Assembly (NCBI GenBank): GCA_963749495.1
Contig: CAVVMW010000014.1
Coordinates: 416,001 to 480,000 of the forward strand
Length of the DNA stretch: 64,000 nucleotides
From: an uncultured bacterium
Lineage (GTDB): Bacteria > Verrucomicrobiota > Verrucomicrobiia > Limisphaerales > UBA8199
Direction of reading: 5' to 3'
Both the position numbers and the translations under genes were made by a program. This document shows, one piece after another, positions 45,201-62,384 of the stretch. Numbering within the stretch: position 1 is the stretch's first letter; each line of letters begins with the position of its first letter. The notes under the pieces are model-generated. The model did no database searches. It saw nothing but the letters and a program-made list of their open reading frames with translations, and was not told the DNA's origin.

Positions 45201-45419
45201 AGCCGGCATCACTCCGTTGTCCACCAGGATGACGACACGCGGGAAATTGGTCTGGGGAAAGACCGAGGACGGTATCTTAAACGCAGCGTAAACGCCCGCG
45301 AGACACAACGCTACACTGATGAACGTGATGGCCAGCGAGTGGTGGACGGCAAATCGGCCGATCCATGAATCTTTCTTCTTCAGCATGGTTGAGATGGGTG
45401 CCCCACCCGATTGGCTCAC
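42270..45419 (-). CDS. RND efflux permease (CusA/CzcA/AcrB superfamily)
   Basis: 1049 aa; SVFPQTNFP, GLVIDNAIVVVE, EFLPPMDEG, KNGILM, RRLRPVLMT. Confidence 0.95.
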   Translation of the reverse strand: MSQSGGAPISTMLKKKDSWIGRFAVHHSLAITFISVALCLAGVYAAFKIPSSVFPQTNFPRVVILVDNGVMPADEMMATITRPIEEAMKDIPGAVTVRSTTGRGSAEINVFFNWQVNMIQSELYVNSRLSQIRSALPATASTTVWRLTFSAFPIIGVSLISPQRSIMELWETARYELKPRFLRIPGVARVDLVGGRTPEYHVIVDPVRLQAANLSLAQVTDALEKNNLIAPTGMHEENHTLYLAVVDGRVHSIEDIENLTVTVVNMHPVRIKDFARVERGPEPVFNVVTAEGRNAVLLNIRSQADGSTLDIAKALQQVLQELKKDLPPDMKTAYYYDQSLFVRASVRSVWDAIGFGLVLSIFILYFFLKNWGITFTAILVIPVTVLITLVAMQVVGLSFNLMTLGGIAASIGLVIDNAIVVVEAIHVKIAGGLPRREAIQAGISEILVPLIGSTLTPVVVFIPLAFLEGISGVFFRALALTMVVALLTSLVLAITLTPSLAAWFTRDRGRLEHGHAPTSDEGGFLLQRVIRVYEIALRAALRHVWLTLGACGLVLLLGVGIYQHLESEFLPPMDEGAFVIDYIAPPGTSLAETHRQLLIAEQILIATPDVESFSRRTGARLALAIAEPNTGDFLVKLKPDRKRRTDGVTSELRAKFNSTLPGIQWEFPGVLSDLIGDLTWSPEPIEVKLFSTDMEFLKKKAPEVEEQLKKIKGVVDTKDGLIYAGPTIGLRVRYTDAQRFGLTAADVAAAVNAAMLGQEASTVLEGDRVVNIRVLVDRSSIDRIATLRELPLHAADGTLVKLSQVADIVEQPGQLELRREDLRQDVAVSARLEGRDLGSAMAEIQQKLSQDKTIPPGVIEFGGLFEQQRDSFRNLMLVLAMAIFLVFTVLLIEFRSFYEPVAIVFGAVLALFGTVLALWLSGTSLNVVSFLGAIIGVGIVAKNGILMLDFVEHLRAEGASLEDALVRSGHRRLRPVLMTSLAAAFGMLPLAYGIGRGADMLKPLAIAVIGALCISVLLSLVATPAGYYLMLRLRGEQARQEPPSPATTA

Positions 45420-46444
45420 TTGGACAACACGCGGACCTTAGTTTCCTTGGGCAGTGCATAAGCACCTTCTGTCACAACGGACATGCCAGGCTGCAAACCG
45501 TCCGCTTCGACTTCAATCAATGCGCCGTCATGCAAGCCGGCCTGGACGGCTTTCTGTGTCGCCTTGTCTCCCTGAACGAGGGCAATGACCGTGCTGCCCT
45601 CAGCGTCCTTGACGACGCTCTCCACCGGCACAGCCAGACGGTCTTTGTGCTCCTCGCTGACAATGCGGGCCGTCACGAACTGACCAGGGCGCAGACCGGA
45701 ATGAGCCGGGAGGTTGGCGCGCACGAGCGCCGTACCTGTTTTGGAGTCCACCTCCGAGCTAATGTAAGTCATCGCGCCCATTGCCGGAGGGGCGGATTTG
45801 TCCACCAGCACTTCGACGGGTTGCCCCACTTTGAGCGCAGCCAGTTCGCGGCTTGGCACGTTGGCGCTGACCACGAGGCGGTCGAGATCCATGACCTCGG
45901 CCAACACGGTCGTCAGGTCCACCGCTTCCCCCGGCTTCACGTTAACGCGCACCACGGTGCCGGCGAGGGGCGCTTGGACGCGCAGCAGCGCTCGTTGGGC
46001 GCGTGAGGCCGCCACTTGTTGCTCGGCTTCCTGCAAGGTCTTCTGCGATGTGCCTTCCACCTGGACTAGTTTTCTCTGCCGTTCGAGGGTTTTTTCGGCG
46101 AAATCCACGGCTACATCTGCCGCCCGGCTGTCGAGTTGGAACAACGCGGCGCCTTTGTCCACGCGCTGGCCTTCCACGCACTTGACCTCCGTCACCACTC
46201 CAGGAACAGAGGCGGCAACGCGAGCGCTGGCTGCCGGGCGCTCGCCCGCCGGTTCCGGCTCGACCGTGCCGTAGGCCGTGATGTAGCCACGCAGTGTGGC
46301 ACGCGTGATCTTGCCGATATGCACAGGCACTTCCGTGTCGGATTTTTTCTCCGGTTCCTCTGGCTTGGCCGGTTTGAACCAGACGAGCCAGACCAGGCTG
46401 GCGACGACGGCCAGGCAGATAACGATGGAGACAGTCTTTTTCAT
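45416..46444 (-). CDS. RND periplasmic adaptor (MFP)
   Basis: N-terminal TM, EGQRVDKGAALFQLD, APLAGTV, LRPGQFV, VPVESV; overlaps both neighbours by 4 nt. Confidence 0.9.
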   Translation of the reverse strand: MKKTVSIVICLAVVASLVWLVWFKPAKPEEPEKKSDTEVPVHIGKITRATLRGYITAYGTVEPEPAGERPAASARVAASVPGVVTEVKCVEGQRVDKGAALFQLDSRAADVAVDFAEKTLERQRKLVQVEGTSQKTLQEAEQQVAASRAQRALLRVQAPLAGTVVRVNVKPGEAVDLTTVLAEVMDLDRLVVSANVPSRELAALKVGQPVEVLVDKSAPPAMGAMTYISSEVDSKTGTALVRANLPAHSGLRPGQFVTARIVSEEHKDRLAVPVESVVKDAEGSTVIALVQGDKATQKAVQAGLHDGALIEVEADGLQPGMSVVTEGAYALPKETKVRVLSK

Positions 46445-47850
46445 GGCTGAGCGTTCACTTGATTCGATTGCGAAACTCGCGGCGAAGTCTGCCAAATGGC
46501 CTCTGGCAAACCCAGAGGACCTTGCAGCGCGTCTTCCAACTGCACCAGCGCCTGTTGCGACTTGACCAGCGCGTCAAGGCGGGCCAGGGCCGAAGCGCTC
46601 AGTTGGAGGCGCAGCGCAGCCAGTTCCCCCTTGGAGATCTCTCCCGCATCGAACATCGCGTGCGACCTTTGTTCCTGTTTTTGCAGCCTGGCCAGCAACT
46701 CATCGGCGTCCGCCCGCTTCTTCAGGGAGACGCGATACCCTGCCACAGCACGGTCAATATCGGACAGCACACCGGCCTGAAGCGCGTCGAATCGGGCGGC
46801 GGATTCCGCCCGTTTGGCCTTTGCTTCGGCGATCGGGCCTTTGTTCTGGTTGAGGACTGGCAGCGTCACTGTGATTCCGAGCGACCATTTGTTGTCCCCC
46901 TGGTCATACTGGTAGCCCGGGCCAAGATGGAGGTCGGGGTATTGCCGGGCGATTTCCAATTGCAGCGCGGACTGGCTGGCTGCGTATTCGGCCAGTGCGC
47001 TAAGAATATCCGAGCGATTGAGCAGGGCCTGCCGGCGAGCGTCGGCGACAGCCGTTTCTTCCGGCAACCGGTCTAAGCCCTCGAATGAGAACTTTATGCC
47101 ATCGAGCGCGCCGGCCGGGACGCCAATGGCCTCGGCCAACTGAACGCGAGCCTCTGCGCTCTGCCGCTCCGCGTCTCGCAACGCGAGCCGCGAGCTGTCC
47201 AGCGCGATGCCCGCCTGGGCGACTTCAAAAGCCGACACCGCGCCCGCCTCGTGCTGGCCCTCCAGCAGGCGGAGATTCTCGGCTTGGAGGGCCTGCTGCT
47301 CCCGCAGCAGAGCCTCCGCCTCCCGGGCTGCATTGAGGTCCACCAGACCTTTGCTTACCCCGGTACGGACCTGCCAGGCGACGGAAGCGATGTTCAGCCG
47401 CGCAGCTTCCGAAAGCCGACCCGCGTGAGCGATGCGATAGCGGCGTTTGCCCGCCGTTTCGATCGGGATATCAATGGACCCAAACGGGATCCAGGGAGAA
47501 GGCGTTATGGTCGTGGTATCGTAGCCAGGCGTGACGTTCAGGGTGGGATTGGGCCGCTCCCCGGCCGTGATTTTTCCGGCCTGCGCCACCGCCCACTGAG
47601 CGCGCGCTACGTCGAGGCTGGGGTGGTAGAAGAAGGCCGCGAGCGTGAGCCTTTCAGAATCCCACGAAACCCCGGGCCATTCGGTCAGTTCTCGGTGGAG
47701 GTTCTGTTCCAAGAATGACTTGAGGGCGGGGTTGTCGAGCGACCGGCTTTCCAGCTTCCCCGCGGTTTCCGTTGGTGAGAGGGGCTGGTGCTCGAAGCGG
47801 GCGCACCCGGCCAGAAGGCACAGGAGGCTGATGCTGAGGCTGCGTTTCAT
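46441..47850 (-). CDS. TolC-family outer-membrane efflux lipoprotein
   Basis: Lipobox LLAGC, PNPTL, IETAGKR, QYPDLHLGPGY, LPVLNQNKG. Confidence 0.9.
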   Translation of the reverse strand: MKRSLSISLLCLLAGCARFEHQPLSPTETAGKLESRSLDNPALKSFLEQNLHRELTEWPGVSWDSERLTLAAFFYHPSLDVARAQWAVAQAGKITAGERPNPTLNVTPGYDTTTITPSPWIPFGSIDIPIETAGKRRYRIAHAGRLSEAARLNIASVAWQVRTGVSKGLVDLNAAREAEALLREQQALQAENLRLLEGQHEAGAVSAFEVAQAGIALDSSRLALRDAERQSAEARVQLAEAIGVPAGALDGIKFSFEGLDRLPEETAVADARRQALLNRSDILSALAEYAASQSALQLEIARQYPDLHLGPGYQYDQGDNKWSLGITVTLPVLNQNKGPIAEAKAKRAESAARFDALQAGVLSDIDRAVAGYRVSLKKRADADELLARLQKQEQRSHAMFDAGEISKGELAALRLQLSASALARLDALVKSQQALVQLEDALQGPLGLPEAIWQTSPRVSQSNQVNAQP

Positions 47851-47967
47851 ACGGGGAAACAGTCAAATTGAATTCGCCGCATAAATCAAGGATTACATGA
47901 TTACGGTGTTGTCATTTAACATGCGGGCGGGGGTGAAACGCGAACAAGGGGGATCCTGCCCACTCAA

Positions 47968-50900
47968 TCAGATTACGTCGAGTTCCCTGGCAGTGAACTT
48001 TCCGTATCTCAAGGCCAGTGTCGGCAGCACGAGCAGGTTCAGCACGGTGGAGGTCAGCAGTCCCCCGAGAATCACAATCGCCATCGGCCCTTCGATTTCG
48101 CGCCCCGCCTCACCCGCGCCGATGGCCAGGGGGAGCAACCCGAGCGCGGTGACGAGCGCGGTCATGAGGATGGGCAGCAACCGTTCGGAAGCGCCGCGAA
48201 TGGCGGCCTCGAGCCCCCACGTCAGGCCTTCCTGCTGCACCAGGTGCTCGAAATGCGAGATCATCATGATCGAGTTGCGGGTGGTGATGCCAAAGAGCGT
48301 GACGAAGCCGACCAGCGAGCCCAGCGAAAGCGAGCCGCCGGTCGCAAATACCGCCAGCACGCCTCCAATCAGGGCGAAGGGCATGTTGACAAGGACCAGC
48401 AGCAGGTTGCGCGGGGTGCGGAACACAATGCTGAGCAGCAAAACAATGCCCACCCCGGCAACGGCCGAGTGCAACAGCAACTCGCGCCTGGCCGAGGCTT
48501 GTGCCAGCCCGGAGCCGCCAAAAGTCGGATACACGCCGGGAGGAAACGAAACCTTGGCCGCTATCTGCTTTTTCATTTCCGCCACGAAGGACGCCATATC
48601 GCGTCCGGCAACGTTGCAGGTCACCTGTTGCCGGCGTTGCGCGCCATCATGGGCAATCAGGTAACGTCCGGTCGTAGGATAAATCTCGGCCAACTCGCGC
48701 AACGGCATCCGCTGCCCCTGGGAGTTGCGCAACAGCAACTCGCCAACTTGCTCCGGCGCCTTCCGGCTCGCTTCATCCAAAATCACGGTCACATCGAATA
48801 CCCGATTGCCGTCGTAGATTTGCGCAACCTCGGTGCCCTGACACGCGGTTTGAATTGCTTCCAGGACATCCACTGGCAGGAACCCAAACTGAGTCAATCG
48901 TTCGGGGCGCAACCGCATGACCATCTGTGGCGAACCGGGCTGCGACTCGACTTGCACATCCGCCGCGCCGCTGATCGTGGCAACCACCTGGCGCACCTCT
49001 CCGGCCTTTTGATCGAGCACATCCAGGTCGTCTCCGAAAATATTGACCGCCACCTGCGCAGTGGCGCCCGAAAGGGTCTCCTCGATGCGCTCAGCCAAAA
49101 AGGGCAGCACCCGGAAGGTCAAACCAGGAAACCTCTCCAGTGCTTGGCGGATTTCGCCAGCGACCCCTTCGGCCTCCTCACCGCTCAAAGGCTTCAAATC
49201 CACGTCCAGCTCGCTGTAATGCGTGCCCCAGGTGTCTTCGCCATTCTCCGCCCGGCCCGCTTGCTGCGAGACGGAACGGATGTGCGGATTTTTCAGCAGT
49301 TCCTCCGTGACCTGCCGGCCCAGGCGCAACGATGCCTCCAGCGATGTCCCAGGCAGAGCGGCCATGTGGATAATGAAATGGCCTTCGCGAAACTCGGGCA
49401 GGAATTCGCCCCCAAAGAACGGCAGCGTGGCCGCCGCCGCCAGGATCATCACCAGAGCCACGCCGATGACAGTGCGCGGCCGTCCGCTCAAAGTCCCCAG
49501 CCAGCGCCGATGGCGTTCTTTCATCCAGCGGACGTGCCGAGGCTTCTTCATGGGGGCTGGTCCGCGAGAGCATCCCCAGGCACAGCGCCGGGGTGAGAGT
49601 CAGGGCCACGGCCAGAGAGGCCAAAATCGCGAGAATGAACGCGGTCGCCAGGGGCGTGAACAGCTTTCCCTGAATGCCGGTCATGGTCAGGATTGGAAAA
49701 AACACCAGCGCAACGATGAATGTCGCATAGACCACGGCGCTGCGGACTTCCAGCGACGCTTCCAAGACCACTTGAAAAAGCGGACGCGGCTGAGCCCGGG
49801 CCAGGTTCTCCCGGATACGCCGCAGAATGTTCTCCACGTTGATAATCGCGTCATCCACCACCACACCGATGGCGATGGCAAAGCCACCCAGCGTGAGGGT
49901 GTTCAGCGAAACCCCGCAGCGATCGAGCACAATGACCGCCGCCAGCAACGAGAGCGGAATTGAGCTGAAGGAAATGAACGCGGTCCGCCAGTCCAGCAGA
50001 AAAAAGAGCAACACGGCCGCCACCAGGATGCCGCCGATCATCAGCGACTCGCCCACATTCCGAATCGAGGCCTCGATGAAGTTCGCCTGCCGAAACAGCC
50101 GCGGATGCACAGTGATTCTCTCGGAAACGAAAGCCGGCGCCATCTCCCCCAGCGCGCCCTCCACCGCCCGCGTCACCTCGATCGTATTCGCGCCATATTG
50201 GCTGTACACCTCGAGCACCACGCCGGGCTCGCCCAGGATCAACGCATCACCAAATTTCGGCTCCGGCCCCTCGGCGACCTTTGCCACGTCCTTCAAACGC
50301 ACGCTCGCGCCGTCATGGTGGGCCAGCACCACTTGGCCGAGTTGTTCCGCCGTGAGGGATTGTCCCTCCGTCCGCAGAATGATTCGCTGGTTGGCGTTGT
50401 CCATGAACCCCGCCCCGCGCACGGCGGTGGACTGCCGCGCCGCCGCCAGCACGTCTTCTAAAGCAAGGCCATGCTCCATCAGCAGGTTCGGGTTTGCTTG
50501 GACCTGAAGCTGCCGCACCTCGCCGCCGAAGACCTCCACTTTGGCGACCCCCGGCACTGCCAAAAGTCGCGGTCGCACCGTCCAATCCGCGAAGGCGCGC
50601 AGTTCCATCGCTGTGCGGTTGGTCGAAGTCAGTCCAAGGTTCAGCACCTTGCTCGTCGAAGAAATCAGCGGCCCCATTTTCGGGGCCTTAACGCGTTGCG
50701 GCAGTGAGCCCGCCACTTGGGTCAAACGCTCACTCACCATCTGGCGGACGCGGTAAATATCGGCGCGGTCCCTGAACACGGCCGTGATGGCCGAGAGCCC
50801 TTGAATTGATTCGGAACGAATCGCCACCAGGTTGGGCGCGCCGTTGATGCTGTGCTCGATCGGGCGCGTCACCAGCGCTTCCACTTCCTCGGGCGATAAT

Positions 50901-51063
50901 CCCGGCGCTTCGGTTTGGATGACCACTTGCGGCGGCGCGAACTCGGGAAAACGTCCAGTTTGGTGCGCTGTGCCACGTAAAGGCCATAAGCGAGGGCGGC
51001 ACACGCCAGCACAATGACCACGCCGCGATACCGCAATGAGAATTGAACGATCCGCCGGAGCAT
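47968..51063 (-). CDS. CusA/CzcA-family RND efflux permease (frameshifts at ~50945 and ~49550)
   Basis: Three ORFs (50869..51063, 49178..51151, 47968..49551) tile one permease: LDVFPEFAPPQV, GVVVDDAIINVEN, EFLPEFREG, ERLLPILMTA. Confidence 0.88.
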
Positions 51064-51068
51064 CGGGG

Positions 51069-52081
51069 TTAATCAAACATCTTGATCTGATATTTTTGCT
51101 CCTCGGAAAGGAGAACCTGCGCGCCCTGGACGACCACCGGCTGGTTCGCACTTACCCCTCTGCTCACGAACCACCCGTCCTCCAGGCGATGGTCGAGCGC
51201 TATTTCCCGGCGTGTGAAAGTGCCCTCCCCGGTTTGCAGATAGATCCAACCGCGGCCGGCGTGCCGCACCACGGCAGAGTCGGGAACGATGCACCCGCTC
51301 AACGGCCCACTCTTGAGTTGGAGGTAGCCGCTCGCCGCCCTTCCCGGAGAGAGTCGCTGTGAATTCGTTTTGACGAGAAACAAAAACCCCTGACCTTGCA
51401 TCTGTGGGTCAACATTTGGCGCCGGCCCCAGCCATTGCGCCGAAATGGAAGGGCTTTCAGCGGATGCCAGGACGATTCGCGCGCCGGCGGGGTTGCTTTC
51501 AGCATTTGGCCCGCTGGCAGGTCAATCCGCACCAGCGCGCTCTCCAGCGAAGCCAGCGACCGCACAAAAACCGCGAGGTCCGGCTGCTCCGCAATCGCGG
51601 TCCCCCACGCCGACACCAGTCGGAGATGCACGGATTCCACGGCAATGTGATCGCGTTGCGCAGTCGCTTCCACCGCTTGCAGCGCCCGGTCGGAAGCATT
51701 CGCCTGCTCATTGAGCCGCTTCACTCGCTCGAATTCCTTCTCTGACGCCGCCGCGGCAGCCTCAGCGGAAGCCAGTTCGGCCACCAGTGCAACGAGCGGC
51801 GAGGGATCCATCACACGCGCAAATCCTCTCACCTCCGGGCTTAGCATGGCAGGTCTGAGGGGTTCGGCTTGCAGCGCGATTTTTGCCTGAGCTTCTCGCT
51901 CCAACGTCAGGATGATTTCGCCGTTCGCCCCAGACGTGACGCGCGATTTCGCAACGACGGGCCTCTCGCGTTCCGCTTCGGCCTGCCGTTCCGCGCTCAT
52001 TTTGAGAAAGGCGAAGACTAAAGCGCCCATGGCGCCTATTGCCACAAGCAGAACCAGGGCGGTCTTGAGGCTGTTTTTCAT
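51069..52081 (-). CDS. RND periplasmic adaptor-like protein (frameshift at ~51490)
   Basis: N-terminal TM, coiled-coil hairpin; adding one C gives ATPAGARIV...VDPQMQGQ, VPDSAVV, GAQVLLSEE. Confidence 0.8.
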
Positions 52082-52195
52082 GGTTCGGTCGAGGCCATCC
52101 TTCCGCTTTCAGCTCCAGATGTCCAGCCAAAGGGGACCCCAGGAACCCAGCGGGTTTGGATCGAGCAGGCGCAGTTCAGCTTTCAATATGCCTTA

Positions 52196-52353
52196 GGCGG
52201 TGGAAATAAATAGAGGTGGCAAGATGCCGCCGGGATTTTGGCGCCCAGCGAGGCGTGAACGAGGCGCATATCCAGTGATCTGCAACGAGTGAACAACGAA
52301 GCTGGGCGGCAAAAGAACAAGGCAGGTTGCTACCTTTATTTATTTCCACCGCC
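52196..52353. mobile_element. 158-bp MITE-like element
   Basis: 27-bp imperfect TIRs GGCGGTGGAAATAAATAGAGGTGGCAA / TTGCTACCTTTATTTATTTCCACCGCC, flanked by TTA on both sides. Confidence 0.8.
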
Positions 52354-52461
52354 TTAATCGGGAAGCCGGTTCGCGCATCGGTGGGCGGACTGGCAACACC
52401 AGCGGCGCCCTGCGCACGGGCGCGCGCACGCCGCGCCCCAGCCAAGCGCAAGCGCGCGCGA

Positions 52462-54161
52462 TCAGGACAACTTCGCCCCGGCAAGCGTCTTGGACCCCCG
52501 CTCCGCCGGCAAGCCCGCCACCCGCAAGAGCGCGCCCGCCGCCTCCAAGTCCCTAATGGCCTCCCGCAGCCGCGGTTCATCCGACTTTGTCCGCGCCAGC
52601 GTTTGCTCCAGCGCCGCCAGTTGGTCCCGCGCCTGTTGTTCCGCCTGCCGGCTCAATTCCGCGATGCCCGTTGCCACCCGCTCACCCCAGTCCGCCGCCA
52701 GCCGCGACAGGTTTTTCTCCACTTCCCACCGTGCCTTACGCGTCAGCACACGCCCAAGCGGCCTGCGAAACACCCTCAACGGCACGACCCAACCAATCGC
52801 GCTGAACGCCACGTCGAAAGCATAAGCCACGTCCACCGGCGGTGCGGCTGGCTGCCGCACCTCCAGGGCGAACTCGCGCGGCGTCAGCGGCAAACCAAGC
52901 GCGTCCTTCACCTGCGCCGCCAGCCGGTCATCAAACGCGCGCAACGCTCGCTTGAGGTGCTCCCGAACCAGGCTCAACGGCTCGCAAAACATCCCTTGCT
53001 GCTCGCACGACACTTCGCCCATCTCGCGCTTCAGGAAAACGCCCAGCCACTCCCTCCAGCCGGCCGAGACCCCGAAAGCGTTCGGGGCAGTGGCCGGCCA
53101 TCCAGCCGCCCGCCCAATTCGGTCGTCACTTTCGCCTGCAACCTCCGCTGTGTTGGCTGCAACCGCTCCAGCGATTGCTCCAGCGCCTTCGCCGACCACT
53201 CCCGTGCCATCACCTGCAGCTCCTCCCGGAACAACCCGAACTGCCGTCGCTCCTCCGCCAGCCGCCCGCGCAACGCCTGCCGCGCGGATTCCGTCTGCGT
53301 TGCCGCCGCCAACCCCACGCGCAGATAATCCTGCGCCTGGCTGACGACCGAAGCCAGTTTGTGCCGCAGAATTGCCCCCGCCGCTTCGCCACCGCCCTGG
53401 CGCAGCGGCAGCAGCAGCCGTCCCACGAACTCCTCCCGGAGCGCCGCCAGCGCCGGCTTGACCGAGTAGAAGAACACCGACAGGCCGCCATCCCATTTTT
53501 CATCCAACTGTCCCCGCACGAACGCCAGTACCTCTCCCCGCTGCGCTTCCGTCAGCAGGTCAGCCTTTGTCAGCAGGAGCACGATCTTCGGTGTCTGCCG
53601 GCGCAACTCTTCGTGCAACGCCAGGTCGCGCTCGGACAGCGGCGCATCCGAGCTCACCGCCACTAGCGCGGCGCCTACATTCGGCAGCCATTTCATCGCC
53701 GCCTCTGTGTTGTGCCGGAACGCGCTCCCCAAACCTGGCGTGTCCACAAATTGCAGAGGCGCCAGGCCCTCCAGCGCGGGCAACTCCACTTCCACCGACG
53801 CCACCTGCTTCCAGTTTTCGTGATTCTGGTTCTCGCCCACGAACAGCCCGATGTCCTTCACCGGAATCACCTCCGCCCGCCCATCCAGGTAGCAGACCTC
53901 CGCCCGCTCCACCGGTCCAAAGCGCAGCCGCGTAATGACCGCTGTCAGCGGCACCACCCCGATCGGCAGCACGTCCCGTCCGGCCAGGTGGTTCAGAAAC
54001 GAACTCTTCCCCGCCTTGAACCGCCCGAACACGGCCACGTCAATTCCGTGGTCCCCCTCCATCAGCCCCTTGCAGGCCGCGATCTGCGGCCGGAGGTTCG
54101 CCAGCTTGAACTGCTCCGCCAGACCGGAAACTCGTTCGAGAATACCGCTTGTGGGGGTCAT
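52462..54161 (-). CDS. Bacterial dynamin-like GTPase B (frameshift at ~53050-53110)
   Basis: G1 GRFKAGKSS, G2 PLT, G3 DTPG, G4 TKAD, then a long helical stalk continuing in ORF 52462..53496 (WEVEKNLSRLAADW). Confidence 0.85.
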
Positions 54162-54162
54162 T

Positions 54163-55299
54163 TCAGATATGCTTGTTGTCGCTCTCGTCCTTGACCGTGT
54201 AGCCCGAGTCCTGGCGCTGGAGGTTGACTACGTGCTTCTTGGTATAGGCTTCGAACAATTCATTAGGTGTCATCCCCATCACTTGCGCGAGCGAAATCAG
54301 GAAGTGCAGCAAATCCACGATTTCCACGCGGGCATTTTGTTTGTCGAATTTCTGGTAGTTCGCCCACCACTTCCATGGCACGCAGTCAACCAACTCCGCT
54401 AGCTCCTGGTCCACTGCCCGGCAGTAGTTCAGCATCCATTGCTGGCGCTGGGCGTCATCCATTTTATCCGTATCGACCCCGATCCGGCGGTTGAGCAATT
54501 TCTGGAGGTAAAATATCGCCTCCAATTTGTCAGGGTGCTTTTGGCAGTACGCGCTGAAAAGCTCTTCCGCAGTTTGGTCCAGCGGCAAATGCCCGCCCGT
54601 GCGCAACACTTCGGCCAGCGTGTCCACAACGCGCGGCTCAAGCCGCAGGCCACGATACGCCGCAACCGTTTTCTCGACGTTGTAGGCAGCCCGGCGCAGG
54701 GTGACCTCGCCGTCGTCCCATATTGCGTATGCCGCGCGCGGGTCGCCGTCTTTGGGCTGGCCGACGCTGCCGGGGTTAACCACGAGCGTCCGGCGGAAGC
54801 GCGTCTTCATCGGCAGGTGCGTGTGACCGAGAAACAGGAAGTCCGGGTATTTCACGGTATTCAATTCCGACTCCCAGAGCGTGACCGGGCTGTTTTCCGG
54901 CAGGTAAAGATAGAGCGGGTCCGCGGGCACGGCGTGGCAAGCCACACATATAGCGGAATCAAGCTGGAATCGTTGCAAAGGCTGCAGCCCGGCCAGGAAT
55001 TGTTTCATCTCTGCCGTCAGGACTTGTTGGCTCGCCGCCTGGGTAGCCGCTGCCAGCGCCTGGTAAGCTGCCGAGGAGCGAGAACCCTCGTCCAGTGCAA
55101 CAGCGCGGTCATGGTTGCCTTGCACCAGCCAATCGGGGGTAAGGCTCTGCATCGCCCAGGCCACGCATTCTGCCGGCTGCGGCCCGTAGTTGACCAGGTC
55201 CCCCAGGCACAGAATCTGGTCAATCTGCGGTTCGGCGGCCAAGACAGCTTGCAGGGCGGGCCAGTTGCCGTGAACGTCCGAGATAAGCAATATCTTCAT
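54163..55299 (-). CDS. Metallophosphoesterase (YfcE-like) fused to a dimeric all-alpha dUTPase-like domain
   Basis: SDVHGN, GDLVNYG, GNHD, GHTH, NPGSVGQP; C-terminal ELAELVDCVPWKWW, VEIVDLLHF, YTKKHVVNLQRQDSGY; one uninterrupted ORF. Confidence 0.85.
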   Translation of the reverse strand: MKILLISDVHGNWPALQAVLAAEPQIDQILCLGDLVNYGPQPAECVAWAMQSLTPDWLVQGNHDRAVALDEGSRSSAAYQALAAATQAASQQVLTAEMKQFLAGLQPLQRFQLDSAICVACHAVPADPLYLYLPENSPVTLWESELNTVKYPDFLFLGHTHLPMKTRFRRTLVVNPGSVGQPKDGDPRAAYAIWDDGEVTLRRAAYNVEKTVAAYRGLRLEPRVVDTLAEVLRTGGHLPLDQTAEELFSAYCQKHPDKLEAIFYLQKLLNRRIGVDTDKMDDAQRQQWMLNYCRAVDQELAELVDCVPWKWWANYQKFDKQNARVEIVDLLHFLISLAQVMGMTPNELFEAYTKKHVVNLQRQDSGYTVKDESDNKHI

Positions 55300-56208
55300 A
55301 ACTCGCTACCACAATGAATGCGGTCTGTTTCGCAGCGTTGTGCCATTACCTGCTCCATTAAGTCTCCGATGCTCTGCTGCTGTGCGGGCGGGAACTCCAC
55401 CCGGATTGTTTCGCCGCCGCCTGCCGCGCGGATTTCCAGTTCGAGCTGGGCCAACCGGTCGTTGGCCCGAACCCGGTAACTTTCCAGCCGAGACAGCGGA
55501 CAGTAAGTTACGACGTCGCCGTACTTGTCGGACCGACCGACACGCAACCACGACCAGGTTTTCTCGTCCGAAATCAGAATCAACTCGCGCTCGGTGAGCA
55601 CCAGCATGGCCTGTGGCGCCAGCTCACGCTCAAACCATCGCCTTGCTCTGCCCCTAACGGCTGGCCAGGGCCGCGCGGCCAAGACGCGTTGCGACAAGGG
55701 CCTGAATTCGTGGACAGCATTCCAGAACCTCAACGGTGTCCCCTGAAGCAGCGCATTTAGGCTTCTGTCCTCTATGGGAATGGTTCCGCGGACTCCACTC
55801 ATGCCATCCAACACCTGCCGCGCCGCCTCCCTGTAAACCCGTTCCATGACTGCATTGAATTCGATCATCGCCGACTGCGTGACCCCATCGGTCGCGTAAT
55901 CGAGTTTCAGCCGTCCATAGAGCAGAATCACGGTCAATTCCACGAGCATCGTGTCAACGAAGGCAGCGCGCGCGAGGCGAGGCGGCATTTCTTCCGCGCC
56001 GCTCACAAGCACCCATTCGTCATCGAGCACGGCCAGCAGAGTCGCGGGCGAACACTGGCCGAGCGTTTTGGCGGCTGGGCCGAAGATCATCAACTGGAGC
56101 CGCTGGCCGCCCTCCAGCGCGGCTGACATGGCGCTGCGCAGCGGTTCGGGGGCTTCTTCCACCGTACCTAAGCCGGCAGGCAAATCTATCCCAAAGGAAT
56201 TTCTTCAT
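55296..56208 (-). CDS. Hypothetical protein (probable frameshift at ~56166)
   Basis: 295 aa ORF whose stop overlaps the phosphoesterase ATG; the upstream ATG (MKKFLWDRF) joins by removing one base. Confidence 0.65.
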
Positions 56209-56251
56209 TGGATTTGGCGCTCTCTGCGCGGATGGCGGCTCGCGTCGCCTT

Positions 56252-56293
56252 TTCGCACTCCGCACTCCGCATTCCGCACCGCGCACTCCACAC
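56252..56293. repeat. 6 x 7-bp tandem repeat (TCCGCAC-like)
   Basis: TTCGCAC TCCGCAC TCCGCAT TCCGCAC CGCGCAC TCCACAC, between dynamin A and the hypothetical gene. Confidence 0.75.
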
Positions 56294-56309
56294 TTCGTTG
56301 AGCCATGTT

Positions 56310-58352
56310 TCACCTTCCTGCCGCCGGTTCTGCGGCCGGATATGTCGCCAACCGTCTCAGGTCGGCTTCAACGCTCGTCACGTCAGTTTCGGCGACGGCA
56401 GTGGCTGCCCGCGCTTCCAACTGGGCACTCAGCAGCCCGGCGCGGGCCGCAAACGCATCTCGAAGTTCCAACAACGATTGTCGAAACCACTGCCGCACTT
56501 GCCGGCGGTAGGAATTGAGCAAGTCTGGCAGTGTCTCACCAAGGTGTTGTTCCAATCGCGAGCGGGTGTGGCGGCGCAAGACCGCCGCGCCCAATGACGA
56601 CAGCAACACGGGTCGTTTCAGAACGAGGTTTTGGGTGAACGCCTCGGTGTCGGCGATCGGCGCGCCCGCAGGCGGGGGCAGTTGCTCGGACGTGTCTATT
56701 GCCAACCGCAGTGCCTGGTGAGCCAGTTGCAGTGCCTGGCCCAGTTGCCACCTCATCGAAGACAACTGTCTCACCAATTTCGCCACCCTTTCCGCCAGGA
56801 CCCGGTGCATGGAAAGCGACATTCCCTTGGCGATGGCCGCGCTTTTTCCCCCGGCGGAGAGCCAGAAGTCCGCGAGGTCTGCCGCCGCAGCCTCGATGAG
56901 GTCGTCGGCCAGCGTGGAGAAGCCGTCCACGATGGCGTCACCCTCCCGCTGCGCGGCCTCCAACAGGGCGTCGGCTTTCCGCACGGCGGCCAGGGCCTCC
57001 TGGACGCACTGGCCGGACGGCGCTGGGGACACGTGGGAACTGCGTTGGAGGCGGCTTTCGAGAACCGCGATGACCGCTTCGCGCAACGCGCCCACTTTGC
57101 GTTTCTGCGCGGCAGCGGCTTGCTCGAGACGCGATTCGACCAGCGGCATCAATTCCTCTTCCAGCCATTCGTCGCAGAGAGCGGCACTTTCGCCGAGCAC
57201 GCTAACGAAGTGCGCCCGGAGTTTCAGGTTCGCTTGTGCGGAGAGTTGACGCTCGACGTAATCGCCGGTCTGCCGGCGCTCGGCAGCCCCCAGCAGATCC
57301 GCTTTGCTCACCAGCACCATCGCCTGTGCACCCGACTGGTAGAGGGCATGGACAATGGTCAAATCCTCGTGGGTGATGGTCGAGCCGGCGTCCACCAGCA
57401 CGATGCCCAGGTCGCACCGCGGCAAATAGGCAGCCGTCTCTTCGGCGCCAGCCGTAGCGAGCGAACCCAGTCCCGGCGTATCGACGAATGTCACCCCCTC
57501 GCGCAATCGCGGCGAGGGCAGTTGCGCGCTAATGCGTACGACATGCTTGGCATTCCCTGGATTCTGCTGTTCCGTTACAAACTCCGCCAGACGAGAAAGT
57601 TCGACCACTTGCGGCTTGCCTTCGGCAAACGCGATAATGGCCCGAGCTTCGGCGCCGTAGCTCACCCGGGTGGAAAAGCCGTCACCGGGGTGACGCCCAC
57701 GGGTAAAACCGTGTTCCCCAGCAGATAGTTCAATAGCGACGACTTGCCCGAGCTGACGCGTCCGAATACCCCGATTTCAAAGACCTGGTTTTCCAACCTC
57801 TCCAGCAACATCGCCAAGGCGCTGCGAAATTCGATCAAGCCGTGGGCCGTGACCACGCGCTCCAATTCGCGCAGGAGCCTGGCCTGATCGGTCGTTTTCT
57901 CCAGCCGCGCAAGGCGAGCCTGCAGGTCGGCATCCGGACCCTTGTTCCAGTAAGCGATAAGCCGTTCGAGCGTTGCGTTCAACTCGGCGACCACTTCGTT
58001 GATCGCCTTGACGTCCTCCTCGCTCAAAACGCCGTAGCCGCGCATGCGCTGCGGCTCCATTTCCGCCACCGCAATCTGAGCAAACGTGAATCGCCCGCCC
58101 GCAGCCCACATCGCTCCGCACACGGGAGTGGGCCGGGGCAGTCGGAGGTCGGTCAGGGCACGGTTCATCGCCTGCCGCACCCGCTCGATGTAGTCGTGCA
58201 ACACCTTGCGCTGCACGGGAGTTGAATCCTGGGTGTATTCCGCGAAAGGGGACGTTCGAGCCGGCGGTTGCCAGAATGTGCTCGGCTTCGGACAGGAGAT
58301 TGTCGATGTGCCGGAACGTGGTGAGCAGGTGTCGCTCGTGATTCTCGTTCAT
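56310..58352 (-). CDS. Bacterial dynamin-like GTPase A (frameshifts at ~58255 and ~57672)
   Basis: N-terminal helical extension, G1 GRVSSGKSS, G2 PVT, G3 DTPG, G4 SKAD, helical stalk; three ORFs join to about 680 aa. Confidence 0.85.
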
Positions 58353-59089
58353 GTCAGGGGGAAGATCTCGTGGATGCGCCGATCCAGATCGAGACGCCGG
58401 AGGGCGTAAGGATTGCTGAGATCGTACTTGCCGGTTGCCAGTTCTTCAAAGAGCTCCCGCAGCACCAGTGGGCTGCCTGCTGATCTCCGGTGCAGCCACT
58501 CGACAATGGTGGCCGCCTCAGGGGGAATGAGGGCCGCCTTCAGCGCCGCCTCGACCATTTCCTGCGTCTCCGACAAATGAAACGGGTGCAACTCAACTCG
58601 AGCAAACCGCACCAGCATCGGCCAGAAATGGCCGATGTCCCACGAATGCTCCGAACGCGCGCAAATCCAGACCGGCGCCCCTTGAGCGATGCGCTCGAAG
58701 AACGAACTCAGTTTGGGTGTGGTCCAGCCGACCCCATCAAAAACAACCGTCCTGCCCGCCGCGCGCAGCGATTCCCGCAGCCGCTGCTTGCGCTGGAGGA
58801 GCTTCATCTCCGCGGCATCCAACCCCAGTTGCGGTTCGAGGCTGTCGCAAATCTCTCCCCAATGTGCCGATTTGGGTGAAACCAGCAGCGCGAGGGAATC
58901 GCGCAGATGCGCAACCAGTGCCGACTTCCCGACGCCGGCCTGGCCAAGAATGAGCGCATGCTTGTGTTCCGCACACAGTTCGCAAAGCCGCGCCATTTCT
59001 TTGCGCCGCGCCGCGAATGGAAGAGATATGAGAATGTGACCCGACGTTTCCGCTGGCCTCTTGCTCAGGACTTGTTTCGGCGTTGCCAT
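58349..59089 (-). CDS. Small P-loop ATPase (AAA-like)
   Basis: Walker A GQAGVGKS, Walker B VVFD, SAGSPL; stop overlaps the dynamin A ATG. Confidence 0.8.
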   Translation of the reverse strand: MATPKQVLSKRPAETSGHILISLPFAARRKEMARLCELCAEHKHALILGQAGVGKSALVAHLRDSLALLVSPKSAHWGEICDSLEPQLGLDAAEMKLLQRKQRLRESLRAAGRTVVFDGVGWTTPKLSSFFERIAQGAPVWICARSEHSWDIGHFWPMLVRFARVELHPFHLSETQEMVEAALKAALIPPEAATIVEWLHRRSAGSPLVLRELFEELATGKYDLSNPYALRRLDLDRRIHEIFPLT

Positions 59090-59121
59090 AACTCACTACC
59101 GTTGCGAACAATATCGTTTCG

Positions 59122-59187
59122 GTAGGAGTCGTCAGCCCAAGGGCGGTTTGCCCCGAACCCGTTCGGGGGCAGGCAAACTCCATTGCC
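59122..59187 (-). ncRNA. Fluoride riboswitch (crcB motif) 2
   Basis: Minus strand GGCAATGGAGTTTGCC-[hairpin]-AAACCGCCCTTGGGCTGACGACTCCTAC: P1 GGCAA/TTGCC, pseudoknot GGAGT/ACTCC; 32 nt upstream of the ATPase ATG. Confidence 0.92.
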
Positions 59188-59223
59188 TTTGACACACTAT
59201 CACCCGTTAGCGGCGGACAGGAA

Positions 59224-60525
59224 CTACCTCCGGCTCCCGAACAATGCGCCTCCGTATTGCGCCTTCTTGCCCAGCTCCCGCTCGATGGCCAGCAGCCGGT
59301 TGTATTTGGCGATGCGTTCGGACCGGCACGCCGACCCTGTCTTGATCTGCCCCGCGCCCGTCCCCACCGCAAGGTCCGCGATAAACGCGTCTTCGGTCTC
59401 GCCCGACCGATGCGAAATCACAGCGCCGTAACCGGCCTTCTGCGCCATCGATACTGTCTCCAGTGTCTCGGACACGGTGCCGATCTGATTCAGTTTGATC
59501 AGGATTGCGTTGGCGATTCCATCGCGGATGCCCTCCGCGAAGATTTTCGGGTTGGTCACGAAGTTGTCATCGCCCACGAGTTGCATCTTCCTGCCCAGCG
59601 CCTTCGTGAGCGCCTTCCACCCCTCGCGGTCCTCTTCGCCCATCCCGTCCTCCAGCGAGACGATGGGATATTTCCTCGCCCACTCGGCCCACAACGCCAC
59701 CAGCTCCGCAGGCGTCTTGCGCGACCCGTCCGATTTTTTCATCACGTAAGCGCCCTCGTCCCAAAACTCGCTGGCTGCCGGGTCCAGGGCGATGGCAATT
59801 TGTTTGCCCGCCTGGTAACCCGCCGTTCCGATAGCCTCCAGAATCACGTCCACCGCTTCCGTGTTGGTCTTTAGGTTCGGCGCGAAGCCACCCTCGTCGC
59901 CAACGGCCGTCACCAACCCGCGTTTCTGCAAAAGCTTCTTGAGCGTGTGAAACGTCTCCGTCCCATACCGCAGCGCCTCGGCAAACGTCGGCGCCCCAAT
60001 CGGGAAGAGCATGAATTCCTGGAAATCCACATTGTTGGTCGCATGCGCCCCGCCGTTCAGGACGTTCATCATCGGCGCAGGCAGCACATAGAGCGCGTTC
60101 TCTTCCCCGCCGAAAAGCCTCCGAATGTGCGTGTAGAGGGGCGAAGCCGACTCCGTAGCCGCCGCCCGGCACGCCGCCATCGAAACGCCCAGAATGGCAT
60201 TCGCTCCCAGCTTCGCTTTGGTCTCCGTCCCGTCCAGCTCGCACATCATTCTGTCAATCTCCTTTTGCTCCTGCGGCGATTTCCCCTGCAGCCTCGGCGC
60301 AATCACCGTGTTGACGTTCGCCACCGCTTTCAACACACCCTTGCCGCCATACCGCTTCGGCTCCTGGTCCCGCAACTCCACGGCTTCCCGGATGCCCGTG
60401 GAGGCGCCCGATGGGACGCTCGCCGACGCTGTAATGCCGTTCGACAAAACGACCGTTACCGAAACGGTCGGATTGCCCCGCGAGTCGAGAATTTCCAATG
60501 CGCTGATGTTTTCTATGGTGTTCAT
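59224..60525 (-). CDS. eno: Enolase
   Basis: [74 protein letters not shown]. Confidence 0.97.
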
Positions 60526-60544: not shown

Positions 60545-61015
60545 TTATTCAATTTCACCGGGACTGGTTTGGTCCCCGGGAAGTTCATCGGGCTGTTTGA
60601 CGATGAGCACGCTGCAATGGGCGTGGTCACTAATCCGGTCCGCCGTGTCGCCGAGCAGGCGTCCCCAAAGCTCCGAGTGATCGCTGTGGCCGACGACGAT
60701 GAGGTCGTAGCCGGCGCTGTTGGCGAAGGTCACCATTACCTTGGCGGCATGGCCGGCGCGGCTCTCGCAGCCGATGGCGATGCCAAAGCGTTGGGCCACC
60801 TTCTCGACTTCGTGCTTGCGCTCCTGGAAGTAATCGCGCGCGGCATCGGCTTCGCCTTCCGCTTCCCCGGGCAAGTCCGCATGGCGCGGCAGTGGCTGCC
60901 GCACCCAGAGCGCCGTCAATTGCCCGCCGCCCTCACGGGCCAGTGCCGCCGCGCGTTCCAGCGCCGCCCGCCCGCCTTTCGATCCGTCGTAACCGACCAG
61001 GATTTTCCGGAACAT
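60545..61015 (-). CDS. Universal stress protein
   Basis: [44 protein letters not shown]. Confidence 0.93.
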
Positions 61016-61022
61016 AATCGCT

Positions 61023-62243
61023 TCACTTTCCCAGGGGCTGAGGTTGGACTTTCACCCTGCCGTTGAGCTTCCGCTGATAAAGCCGGCCCCAGGCCTGCAT
61101 CGTCCGCCGGGACGGCTCGAAGAACTTCGGCGCGATGACGGTGGGCACAAACGCGCTCAGAATGACGACCGTGACGAGGATGGAATACTGCTTCTGGTCA
61201 ATGATCCTGTTTTGCAGCCCGAACAGGGCAGAGATTGTGCCGAAGGTCAGGCCTGTGGACATGAGCAGCGTCGTGTAATTGGCCTCTCGCGGCCGCATGA
61301 AGTATTTCCGGCACAACGGCAGCACGCCCACGAGCTTGGTGGCCATCTTGAGCGCCAGGAGCGCCAGGATAACGCCCGAGGCCGCCGCCAGCGCGCGGAG
61401 CGACACGAACGAACCGGCGCGGATGAAGTAAAAAGGGGTGAAGACCGCGAAGGCGATGCTGCGCATCCGGTGCACCAGTGTCTTGTCGCGCAGGAACACA
61501 CCGGCCACAACCAGGCCGAGGAGGTAGGCGGGGAGCACCGCCTCGCTCTTGGCCGTCAAGGCCAGCCCGCCCAGGAAGAAGAGCACGAGGAAAATGAACT
61601 TAATCTCCGGCTCGCTCGCCCGGGTGGCCCCCAAGCGCACGACGATGTACTGGGTCCACCTGGGCATAAACCACAGCGTCACGCAGGTAACGATGACGAA
61701 CACCAGCAGCCAGACGTTGAAATTGGCGAAAATGAGGCCCAGTGCCAGCACTGTGCCAAGGTCGTTGATGAAACACGCCGCCAGAATCATCTTGCCCAGG
61801 GCCGTCTCGCCTTGCCGCGTCTCAATCATCACGGCATAGACCACGGCGACGGAAGTCGTCGAGAGGGCTATGCCGGCGATTTGGGCCTGGTGAAGGGGCC
61901 AGCCGAGGGCAAACCGCGCGAAGGCCCAGACTCCCGCGAAGGGCAGGAGAAATGCCGCAGTGCCGATGGCCATGCTCGCGCGCAGGTTGGCCCGGAGGGA
62001 TACCGGGTCAATCTCCGCTCCGGCCAGGAAGGTCAGCACGCCACTGCCGAGCATGGCCAGGAAATTGGTCCAATCGGTGGAGCGCAGCAGTGGTTGGCCG
62101 CCGCCCAGGTGGAGGTTGCCCGCAACGACGCCGACGAAGATCTCGGTCAACGCCACCGAGATGCCCAACCGAATCGAGGTGAGGCTGGCTACCAACGCCA
62201 ACCCCATCCAGAGTGCTGCAATAAACCAGATATTCTCAGACAT
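61023..62243 (-). CDS. Cation:proton antiporter (CPA2 / Na+/H+ exchanger family)
   Basis: Many TM segments; LTFLAGAEID, ALSTTSVAVV, AACFINDLGTV, PFYFIRAG; start at MSENIW after GGGAG. Confidence 0.9.
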   Translation of the reverse strand: MSENIWFIAALWMGLALVASLTSIRLGISVALTEIFVGVVAGNLHLGGGQPLLRSTDWTNFLAMLGSGVLTFLAGAEIDPVSLRANLRASMAIGTAAFLLPFAGVWAFARFALGWPLHQAQIAGIALSTTSVAVVYAVMIETRQGETALGKMILAACFINDLGTVLALGLIFANFNVWLLVFVIVTCVTLWFMPRWTQYIVVRLGATRASEPEIKFIFLVLFFLGGLALTAKSEAVLPAYLLGLVVAGVFLRDKTLVHRMRSIAFAVFTPFYFIRAGSFVSLRALAAASGVILALLALKMATKLVGVLPLCRKYFMRPREANYTTLLMSTGLTFGTISALFGLQNRIIDQKQYSILVTVVILSAFVPTVIAPKFFEPSRRTMQAWGRLYQRKLNGRVKVQPQPLGK

Positions 62244-62274
62244 AACTCCCACCTCGCCACATCCTGTGGCGCTG

Positions 62275-62349
62275 GTAGGAGTCATCAGCACTGAAACCGT
62301 TCAGGCGGTTTTCCCCGAAGCCCTTGAGGGGAAGGCAAACTCCATTGCC
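62275..62349 (-). ncRNA. Fluoride riboswitch (crcB motif) 1
   Basis: Minus strand GGCAATGGAGTTTGCC-[hairpin]-AACCGCC-[stem]-GCTGATGACTCCTAC; upstream of antiporter, USP and enolase, which are known riboswitch-associated gene classes. Confidence 0.95.
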
Positions 62350-62355
62350 ACAGTA

Positions 62356-62384
62356 ATTCTGGCCCGCAATGCCCACGCTGGCAA
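62356..62384 (-). promoter_or_regulatory. Sigma70-like promoter for the riboswitch 1 transcript
   Basis: TTGCCA - 17 nt - CAGAAT, ending 6 nt before the first G of the aptamer. Confidence 0.65.

Follow-up and report, generated by a model that had tools for sequence, protein, structure and literature searches.

A 64,000-nucleotide stretch of DNA from an uncultured Verrucomicrobiota bacterium (positions 416,001 to 480,000 of contig CAVVMW010000014.1, assembly GCA_963749495.1; 'the window' in what follows) carries on its minus strand a row of genes punctuated by fluoride riboswitches. Five genes make up the distal unit of this fluoride-stress island: they code for a small AAA+-like ATPase, a dynamin-like GTPase (dynamin A), a protein with two PH-like domains, a fusion of a phosphoesterase with an all-alpha NTP pyrophosphohydrolase, and a second dynamin-like GTPase (dynamin B). 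Together they constitute a fluoride-riboswitch regulon with an effector module that is not described in the literature searched.

Layout of the locus

The original prediction, made from the letters alone, placed five co-oriented genes behind a fluoride aptamer, and all five do lie on the minus strand. The operon they form is the tail of a longer row with several riboswitches. Read along the minus strand, the order is riboswitch 2, Na+/H+ exchanger, universal stress protein (Usp), enolase, riboswitch 1 and ATPase; after the ATPase come dynamin A, the tandem-PH protein, the Metallophos_2 + dUTPase_2 fusion and dynamin B. The features are as follows.

62356–62384, minus strand: promoter-like site (TTGCCA-17-CAGAAT) directly 5' of riboswitch 2; a weak match to the consensus only
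62269–62358, minus strand: fluoride riboswitch 2 (aptamer); RF01734, 44.8 bits against a cut-off of 34
61023–62243, minus strand: Na+/H+ exchanger; PF00999, E = 1.5e-38; likely start the ATG of MSENIW, taken from the leader
60545–61015, minus strand: universal stress protein (Usp); PF00582, E = 3.9e-28
59224–60522, minus strand: extra enolase copy; Enolase_C (E = 5e-121) and Enolase_N
59116–59196, minus strand: fluoride riboswitch 1 (aptamer); RF01734, 51.1 bits, E = 3.1e-11
59090–59131, minus strand: expression platform of riboswitch 1; from minimum-free-energy (MFE) fold, pairing and compensatory pair types
58349–59089, minus strand: small AAA+-like P-loop ATPase, 246 aa; Walker A GQAGVGKS, Walker B VVFDG, C-terminal LDLDRRIHE
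57905–58352, minus strand: N-terminal helical domain (NTD) of dynamin A, ~148 aa, without a Pfam family
56310–58352, minus strand: dynamin-like GTPase A (NTD, GTPase and stalk), in three frame pieces; Dynamin_N
55296–56207, minus strand: tandem PH-like protein, from predicted structure; start ATG at 56207
55300–55345, minus strand: remnant of a lost riboswitch leader, from alignment to the leaders of other species
54163–55299, minus strand: Metallophos_2 + dUTPase_2 (all-alpha NTP pyrophosphohydrolase) fusion, 378 aa; both Pfam domains
52462–54161, minus strand: dynamin-like GTPase B; Dynamin_N, with a hydrophobic segment in the C-terminal part

Three of the four junctions within the operon had been described as ATGA overlaps or a 1-nt gap, and so they are: ATPase and dynamin A share an ATGA overlap, as do the tandem-PH and phosphoesterase genes, and a single nucleotide separates the phosphoesterase gene from that of dynamin B. 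The fourth junction, between dynamin A and the tandem-PH gene, is a spacer of ~102 nt, counted from the true PH start at 56207. This spacer (56208–56309, minus strand) holds a short imperfect repeat of GCGGAGTGCG-like units, which is not an aptamer.

The fluoride aptamers of the window

The whole window was scanned with Rfam models at their gathering thresholds. The aptamer upstream of the ATPase is real: the match to RF01734 covers model positions 1–64 of 64, and the score rises to 78.2 bits with a covariance model (R1) built from the aptamers of the clade. The distance to the first gene was given as 32 nt in the original prediction, a figure that follows from its own choice of aptamer end (59122); from the end of the Rfam match to the ATG at 59089 it is 26 nt. 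Riboswitch 2, which the original prediction does not mention, is the other of the two RF01734 copies in the window.

The RF01734 alignment shows both stems of riboswitch 1 paired without non-standard pairs. The pseudoknot complementarity is present as well, between the P1 loop AUGGAGUU (GGAG) and the 3' tail GACUCCUAC (CUCC), and the MFE fold shows an insertion after P1, a 20-nt GC-rich hairpin. A GC-rich insertion of ~12–22 nt between P1 and the AAACCGCC segment is found in all 23 clade aptamers (59147–59170 in the window); the Rfam model treats this segment as an insertion. Judged by its sequence, riboswitch 1 belongs to the crcB-motif class and would bind fluoride and change expression accordingly.

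Conservation of the riboswitch link

Two sets of related loci were surveyed for aptamers, with a clade covariance model built from 23 of them. The first set starts from an alignment of relatives of the ATPase and holds 32 loci in the genomes of 32 other species (580 kb). It contains 62 aptamers (31–87 bits), all on the strand of the ATPase, with at least one in 30 of the 32 loci. A same-strand aptamer lies 5' of the ATPase in 29 of the 32, all but L015, L020 (on a contig of 4 kb) and L029 (with 746 nt of upstream DNA). When seven of the 32 loci were scanned again with Rfam's own model, all 17 of the clade-model hits were found again.

The ATPase is the first gene behind 15 of the 62 aptamers, always 21–25 nt away. 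The others stand before the phosphoesterase (12), the Na+/H+ exchanger (nine), dynamin B (one), the PH protein (one) and various other genes (24). Pfam searches with 15 of these 24 returned, among others, CrcB, DUF190, MutS domain V and an outer-membrane efflux protein; further first genes code for an Mrp-type antiporter subunit, an FGE-sulfatase-like protein, an MFS transporter and a DUF6062 protein. CrcB directly behind an aptamer (L006, L031 and L034) provides the link to fluoride exporters. In five Chthoniobacterales-like loci (L031, L032 and L034–L036), a DUF6062-like gene is placed between aptamer and ATPase, directly 5' of the latter.

Some details of this set are recorded for their own sake. 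MutS_V is a first gene in L014, L018, L027 and L037, the FGE-sulfatase in L021 and L027, Proton_antipo_M in L019, the outer-membrane efflux protein (OEP) in L008 and the MFS transporter in L033; DUF6062 is among the genes directly behind aptamers in L031–L036. Up to four aptamers occur in one 20-kb locus (L019, L027, and L016 if a 36.5-bit hit is counted).

The second set starts from the other end of the operon. An alignment of 11 dynamin B proteins found 229 relatives on metagenome contigs, and the loci of the best 80 were examined; some of these are near-duplicates from related samples, so that the counts overstate independence. They contain 93 aptamers, 92 of them on the strand of dynamin B. 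How often a same-strand aptamer is seen upstream depends on how much upstream DNA the contig offers:

less than 1 kb of upstream DNA: 0 of 14 loci
1–2 kb: 7 of 12 loci
2–5 kb: 18 of 22 loci
at least 5 kb: 30 of 32 loci

The commonest distance from aptamer to dynamin B, ~1250 nt, is the one expected when riboswitch, phosphoesterase fusion and dynamin B follow one another. Of the 80 loci, 48 have the ATPase and 49 the phosphoesterase.

The neighbourhood survey bears out the association of both ATPase and dynamin with the riboswitch on which the original prediction was built. That the arrangement goes beyond chance is confirmed, because it recurs in dozens of independent loci. The named relatives of the proteins and loci belong to Verrucomicrobiota (Limisphaerales and others) from peat, bog and soil.

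A probable translational switch at the ATPase start codon

The leader between aptamer and ATPase can fold in a way that involves the aptamer itself. In the MFE fold of the window's leader, the 3' tail of the aptamer, GACUCCUACCG, pairs with CGGUAGUGAGU, whose last base abuts the AUG; the same tail is the pseudoknot strand of the ligand-bound aptamer. All 17 of the ATPase leaders compared end in CGGUAGCGAGU(C/U)-AUG, which is complementary, with one bulge, to the tail. In the alignment of these leaders, 97.9% of the cells are paired, as against 28–40% when the partner strand is slid by 1–3 columns.

Compensatory changes appear when leaders of all gene types are taken together. Of 61 leaders, 19 were dropped, with a gap outside 15–60 nt, no tail motif, or a fold that does not join tail to start; the 42 distinct leaders kept show, at position 1 of the tail, GC 18 times, GU 15 and AU five; at position 3, CG 38 times and UA twice; at position 8, AU 32 times, GC once and UA once; and at position 11, GC 31 times and AU four times. 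The leaders of exchanger genes pair CUGCC with GGCAG, CUUCC with GGAAG or CUAUC with GAUAG, and their 3' strand is a plain Shine-Dalgarno sequence (GGAG). In the leader of riboswitch 2, the tail can pair with GGUGGGAGU, directly before the ATG of the exchanger.

A translational ON design is known for fluoride riboswitches, and the leader of riboswitch 1, read from its sequence, looks like one. That is, without fluoride the 3' tail would pair over 11 bases ending at the ATPase start codon, so that ribosome entry is blocked; with fluoride, the aptamer pseudoknot would take up the tail and the start site would open. Translation of the ATPase would then be handed on to dynamin A through the ATGA overlap, and the tandem-PH protein, the phosphoesterase fusion and dynamin B, which have no riboswitch of their own in the window, would have to depend on read-through of the same mRNA. 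We hold this regulatory part of our explanation with high confidence. A platform of the terminator type was also considered and is unlikely, as the ~24 nt from aptamer to start codon leave no room for one and contain no U tract.

Promoter-like sites were scanned for in the region. Four were found where 1.4 were expected, one of them preceding riboswitch 2, which is weak evidence; none lies between the enolase gene and riboswitch 1, and none in the spacer between dynamin A and the tandem-PH gene. Since no such site precedes riboswitch 1 on the near side of the enolase gene, this riboswitch may act inside a long mRNA.

Immediately 5' of the phosphoesterase start, 45 nt can be aligned to the loop and 3' strand of the riboswitch-phosphoesterase leaders of other species. 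This remnant in the window (55300–55345, minus strand; loop and 3' strand GGTAGCGAGTT) has lost its aptamer and supplies the final codons of the PH gene; a covariance scan of 52000–59300 with filters off found no further aptamer remnant. Because a leader remnant precedes the phosphoesterase gene, the phosphoesterase/dynamin B pair probably once had a switch of its own, lost when the PH gene joined upstream.

One could suppose, then, that only the first cistrons respond: riboswitch 1 would gate the ATPase and the coupled dynamin A, and the distal three genes would be independent of fluoride, their ancestral switch having been lost. The leader remnant without aptamer at the PH/phosphoesterase junction fits this, as do the 102-nt spacer after dynamin A and the 12 related leaders in which the phosphoesterase has its own switch. 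On the other hand, the five genes share one strand and, spacer apart, 4-nt overlaps or a 1-nt gap; no promoter-like site is seen in the spacer; and, as is generally known, a block to translation of the first cistron commonly lowers expression downstream. We regard a response confined to the first cistrons as decidedly unlikely.

The ATPase and the N-terminal domain of dynamin A

The family of the ATPase is a close-knit one (456 clusters at E <= 0.001, of which the 120 clusters listed are 61–100% identical to the query), with GVGKS, VVFDG and the C-terminal LDLDRRIHE as invariant features. Its match to AAA_16 reaches 28.9 bits against a Pfam cut-off of 32.6; most homologues had been labelled PF13191 beforehand. 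The predicted structure (pLDDT 79.9) is that of a minimal AAA+ module, an alpha-beta-alpha core with a helical lid, and its structural neighbours include MuB, TnsC, ORC/Cdc6, RuvBL and Apaf-1 (Foldseek E values of 1e-6 to 1e-4, TM ~0.6). With AAA+ and STAND-type P-loop modules the protein shares the fold, Walker A and the Walker B aspartate. It differs from them in size, with 246 aa and no effector or DNA-binding domain, in its FDG Walker B, in the invariant LDLDRRIHE of its own, and in scoring below the AAA_16 cut-off. With no acidic residue after the Walker B aspartate, it may serve as a nucleotide switch and not as a motor.

The NTD of dynamin A, which matches no Pfam family, is the regular companion of this ATPase. 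In a profile search it is encoded immediately after the ATPase in 29 of the 32 loci, either fused to the GTPase or as a stand-alone protein of 143–157 aa; the profile was built from 21 of those same loci, so that the count is partly circular. Among 1.84 billion representative proteins, 1930 relatives of the domain were found at E <= 0.001. Among the best 150 of them, 76 have at least 600 aa, all 76 with G1 and DxPG motifs, and 60 have at most 210 aa. It is this pattern of fusion and fission, together with the fixed gene neighbourhood, that leads us to propose that the ATPase acts on the NTD.

The dynamin-like pair

Dynamin B matches Dynamin_N with 72.2 bits, and the pieces of dynamin A with 41.8 and 31.1 bits, against a Pfam cut-off of 27; intact homologues score 84.6 and 76.8 bits. 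Both proteins had been credited with intact G1–G4 motifs. Of these, G1, G3 and G4 were scored separately and are present in each (GRVSSGKS, DTPG and SKAD in dynamin A; GRFKAGKS, DTPG and TKAD in dynamin B). The one hint of a membrane-binding paddle is a hydrophobic stretch at residues 443–465 of a dynamin B paralogue encoded in the same genome, with no counterpart found in dynamin A.

The nearest solved relatives are the pair in 5owv (E = 6e-15 and 2e-11 in searches of PDB sequences), IniA (E = 2e-14), BDLP (2j68) and mitofusin; identity to the solved dynamin-like proteins (DLPs) is low and confined to the GTPase domain. Bacterial DLPs are described as acting in membrane tethering, fission and surveillance (PMC6104087, PMC6715688, PMC8844932), and two different DLP genes in one operon are described as usual (PMC6104087). 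The locus conforms to the 5owv pair (PMC6104087) in having likewise two different DLP genes in one operon. It departs from that pair, from IniA (PMC6715688) and from DynA of Bacillus subtilis (PMC8844932) in the inducing signal, a fluoride riboswitch here rather than antibiotics or phage. Two further differences concern the proteins themselves: dynamin A has the extra 148-aa N-terminal domain without a Pfam family, and a dedicated AAA+-like ATPase precedes the pair.

Broken reading frames

The dynamin genes and the PH gene have changes of frame. With the intact dynamin A proteins of L008 (676 aa) and L011 (673 aa) and the 563-aa dynamin B paralogue of the same genome as rulers, the frame of dynamin A changes near 58255 and back near 57671, and that of dynamin B changes near 53069. 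In the PH gene, the conserved N-terminus MKKFLWDRFA... lies in another frame until ~56167.

Four frame changes in 6.7 kb might be taken to mean that the five genes are decaying pseudogenes, and the operon non-functional whatever its regulation; a paralogous island in the same genome does carry a 63-aa deletion remnant of the phosphoesterase fusion. Public sequences speak for another cause. The region was compared at the DNA level with contigs from four public metagenome runs of three studies (small shares, 0.05–0.17), and at each of the four break sites these contigs have a single-base insertion or deletion relative to the window; no RNA run was listed as containing this DNA. At 57671 the contig, of 254 nt, differs from the window by 1 gap and 0 other letters; the other three sites are covered by contigs of relatives, 85–93% identical, which makes the evidence there weaker. 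All four breaks fall in short homopolymer runs, and an unrelated neighbour, the RND pump gene at 47968–51151, is split in the same way. Because of the single-base differences, the homopolymer runs and the split pump gene, we consider the four breaks very probably to be assembly errors, and decay of the genes very improbable.

The tandem-PH protein and the phosphoesterase fusion

The gene left as 'unknown' in the original prediction codes for the tandem-PH protein. It has no Pfam match and belongs to a family of 109 clusters; Atlas look-ups returned only unnamed clusters, with DUF4429 and bPH_3 as weak leads (scores 0.80–0.81). Its structural model (pLDDT 90.7) shows two PH-like beta-sandwich domains, each with a C-terminal helix cap. 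Foldseek gives a probability of 1.0 to tandem-PH proteins, but a TM of only ~0.3; for residues 126–293, VIA gives Z scores from 8.3 down to 6, with a match list that is almost uniformly PH-like. The term 'PH-like' thus applies to the modelled fold and carries no family membership derived from sequence.

In the phosphoesterase fusion, the two Pfam domains score 73.5 and 74.4 bits, above their cut-offs, and the metal-binding motifs can be read in the translation: DVH (DxH), GD, GNHD and GHTH. PDB sequence matches include 3rqz (E = 3e-29) and 2cje (E = 1e-10). Domains and metal motifs are shared with the YfcE-type metallophosphoesterases (1su1, 3rqz) and the dimeric dUTPases (2cje, 2yay, 1w2y); what sets this protein apart is that both domains are fused in one chain of 378 aa, and that its gene stands directly behind a fluoride riboswitch in 12 related leaders.

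Two fluoride islands in one genome

The assembly (11.4 Mb, 31 contigs, 88% complete) contains five fluoride aptamers, all on one contig (C14) and in two islands. The second island (C14:636344–643209) begins with a riboswitch, a partial crcB, DUF190, a Na+/H+ exchanger, Usp and enolase; a further riboswitch is followed by an ATPase 68% identical to that of the window, the deletion remnant of the phosphoesterase fusion and the intact dynamin B paralogue. The partial CRCB match, right behind the aptamer at C14:636344, has 27.4 bits and is below cut-off. Just beyond the right end of the window (C14:480055–480547), an aptamer of 43.7 bits heads a truncated duplicate of the exchanger gene, its first 63 codons at 95% identity, which arose by partial tandem duplication or else is an artefact of assembly.

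The inventory of the genome bears on what the operon is for. One perspective supposes compensation: metal-fluoride complexes mimic phosphate, and the fluoride-sensitive NTPases and the phosphoesterase would be made in excess or as tolerant isozymes, in parallel to what has been proposed for enolase and pyrophosphatase, with no role specific to membranes. Three enolase genes agree with this, two of them in the fluoride islands and the third, presumably the housekeeping copy, on contig C1; so do more distant relatives of the phosphoesterase on C18 and C27. In the literature, the FRM operon of Enterobacter cloacae includes fluoride-inhibited enzymes (PMC5533749), fluoride riboswitches are occasionally found with phosphatase genes as defensive strategies (PMC9971707), and fluoride impairs proteolysis dependent on the AAA+ ATPase ClpX (PMC12700350).

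Compensation fits the ATPase and the dynamins less well. There are two ATPase genes in the genome, both behind aptamers, and the only Dynamin_N matches above cut-off on their own are the three island genes; one further match, on C15, reaches 23.9 bits over model positions 2–34, the P-loop end, only. Outside the islands there is, then, no second ATPase and no dynamin-like gene but the C15 match, in a genome 88% complete, where a copy may have been missed. This confinement of dynamins and ATPase to the islands speaks against the idea that they simply make up for a housekeeping dynamin inhibited by fluoride. As an account of the operon, compensation seems unlikely, though by no means outlandish.

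Neighbouring efflux genes

Directly 3' of dynamin B, two RND efflux sets lie on the same strand (42270–52081, minus strand): an MFP-like gene and an ACR_tran gene in two frames at ~49200–49550 are followed by OEP, HlyD and a second ACR_tran. In locus L008 the OEP gene has a fluoride aptamer of its own, so that the fluoride island may extend to the first set.

A proposed membrane role under fluoride stress

The original prediction took the operon for a fluoride-inducible module of membrane remodelling and nucleotide/phosphate housekeeping, a function that would follow from the families of its proteins. The favoured perspective supposes that the operon serves the upkeep of the membrane under fluoride stress. 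The ATPase would work with the 148-aa NTD, whether fused to dynamin A or free; ATPase and NTD would load or regulate the heterotypic dynamin pair at the cytoplasmic membrane, with the tandem-PH protein as adaptor for the pair; and the dynamins would keep the membrane intact during HF/fluoride stress. Like the extra enolase, the phosphoesterase/dUTPase_2 fusion would stand in for, or add to, enzymes of phosphoryl transfer that are sensitive to fluoride. We put this role forward tentatively, as favoured but still short of an even chance; the explanation as a whole, regulation and membrane function taken together, appears to us slightly more probable than its negation.

Several observations weigh against it. 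The membrane role is drawn from family resemblance only. The ATPase, taken here to regulate the pair, has no acidic residue after the Walker B aspartate (FDG is invariant). In the assembly as it stands, the genes of dynamin A, the PH protein and dynamin B, three of the five, are out of frame. In riboswitch 1, position 59131 (minus strand) gives CUGACGA where 22 of 23 aligned aptamers have CUGAUGA, a C for a U that may reflect true variation or a further error of assembly. Among the 17 ATPase leaders themselves, no pair varies on both sides; the aptamer also constrains the 5' strand, and only the wider set of leaders supplies covariation. For the PH protein, the phosphoesterase and dynamin B, without a switch of their own, control by fluoride through polarity or read-through is assumed. 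Terminators in the scan show no excess over chance, and no promoter-like site lies between the enolase gene and riboswitch 1. Finally, the distribution of the ATPase is patchy: it is present in 8 of 60 other related genomes, seven of them among 36 genomes of the same family, and in none of a phylum-wide sample of 400, which included two genomes of the same order only and so indicates rarity, not absence.

A more radical perspective makes the dynamin pair itself a fluoride device at the level of protein. GDP together with MgF3- or AlF4- would lock the transition-state dimer of the GTPase, so that fluoride would directly trigger membrane tethering or sealing, and the ATPase and NTD would reset or disassemble the locked assemblies; metal fluoride would be plentiful in acid peat. 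We offer this as a long shot. If it were true, bacterial dynamins would have a defined physiological trigger, and there would be a fluoride defence independent of export.

A phage-defence reading, suggested by an NTPase-rich cassette and STAND-like hits, was dropped on gene context: every unit lies behind a fluoride aptamer and beside classical fluoride genes.

Relation to known fluoride operons

E. cloacae FRM owes fluoride resistance to an operon under a fluoride riboswitch that includes usp, eno, ppaC and crcB (PMC5533749), and a 2025 paper names Na+/H+ antiporters, metal transporters and metabolic shifts as known responses to fluoride (PMC12700350). With the FRM operon, given there as ppaC-uspA-eno-gpmA-crcB-orf5249 (PMC5533749), the island shares the class of aptamer (crcB motif, RF01734), and with classical fluoride operons in general it shares the logic by which fluoride induces exporters, pH control and additional copies of fluoride-sensitive enzymes. 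Exchanger, Usp and enolase in the upstream half fit that logic, as does the paralogous island with its partial crcB and DUF190. The distal unit is where the island departs from it, with an ATPase, two dynamins, a tandem-PH protein and a phosphoesterase/dUTPase_2 fusion, none of which is found in company with fluoride riboswitches in the papers searched; a second departure is that several aptamers punctuate a single run of genes of one orientation, with ~24 nt from each to the next start codon. In the full-text literature searched, which did not extend to the gene list of Baker et al. 2012, no paper joins fluoride riboswitches with dynamins, in keeping with the original prediction, which knew of no characterised system like this operon.

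The finding matters in part for the dynamins. Much about the purpose of bacterial DLPs has still to be worked out, and an inducing signal has been identified for only a few. In this system, a dynamin pair, a small ATPase and an NTD are placed behind a sensor that is well understood, in dozens of species from acid peat and soil, which turns the role of such a pair into a question that can be tested at the bench. It also matters for fluoride biology: the island presents several copies of one riboswitch that would gate successive cistrons at the level of translation, and its distal unit would add a further element to a fluoride defence so far made up of exporters, pH control and spare enzymes.

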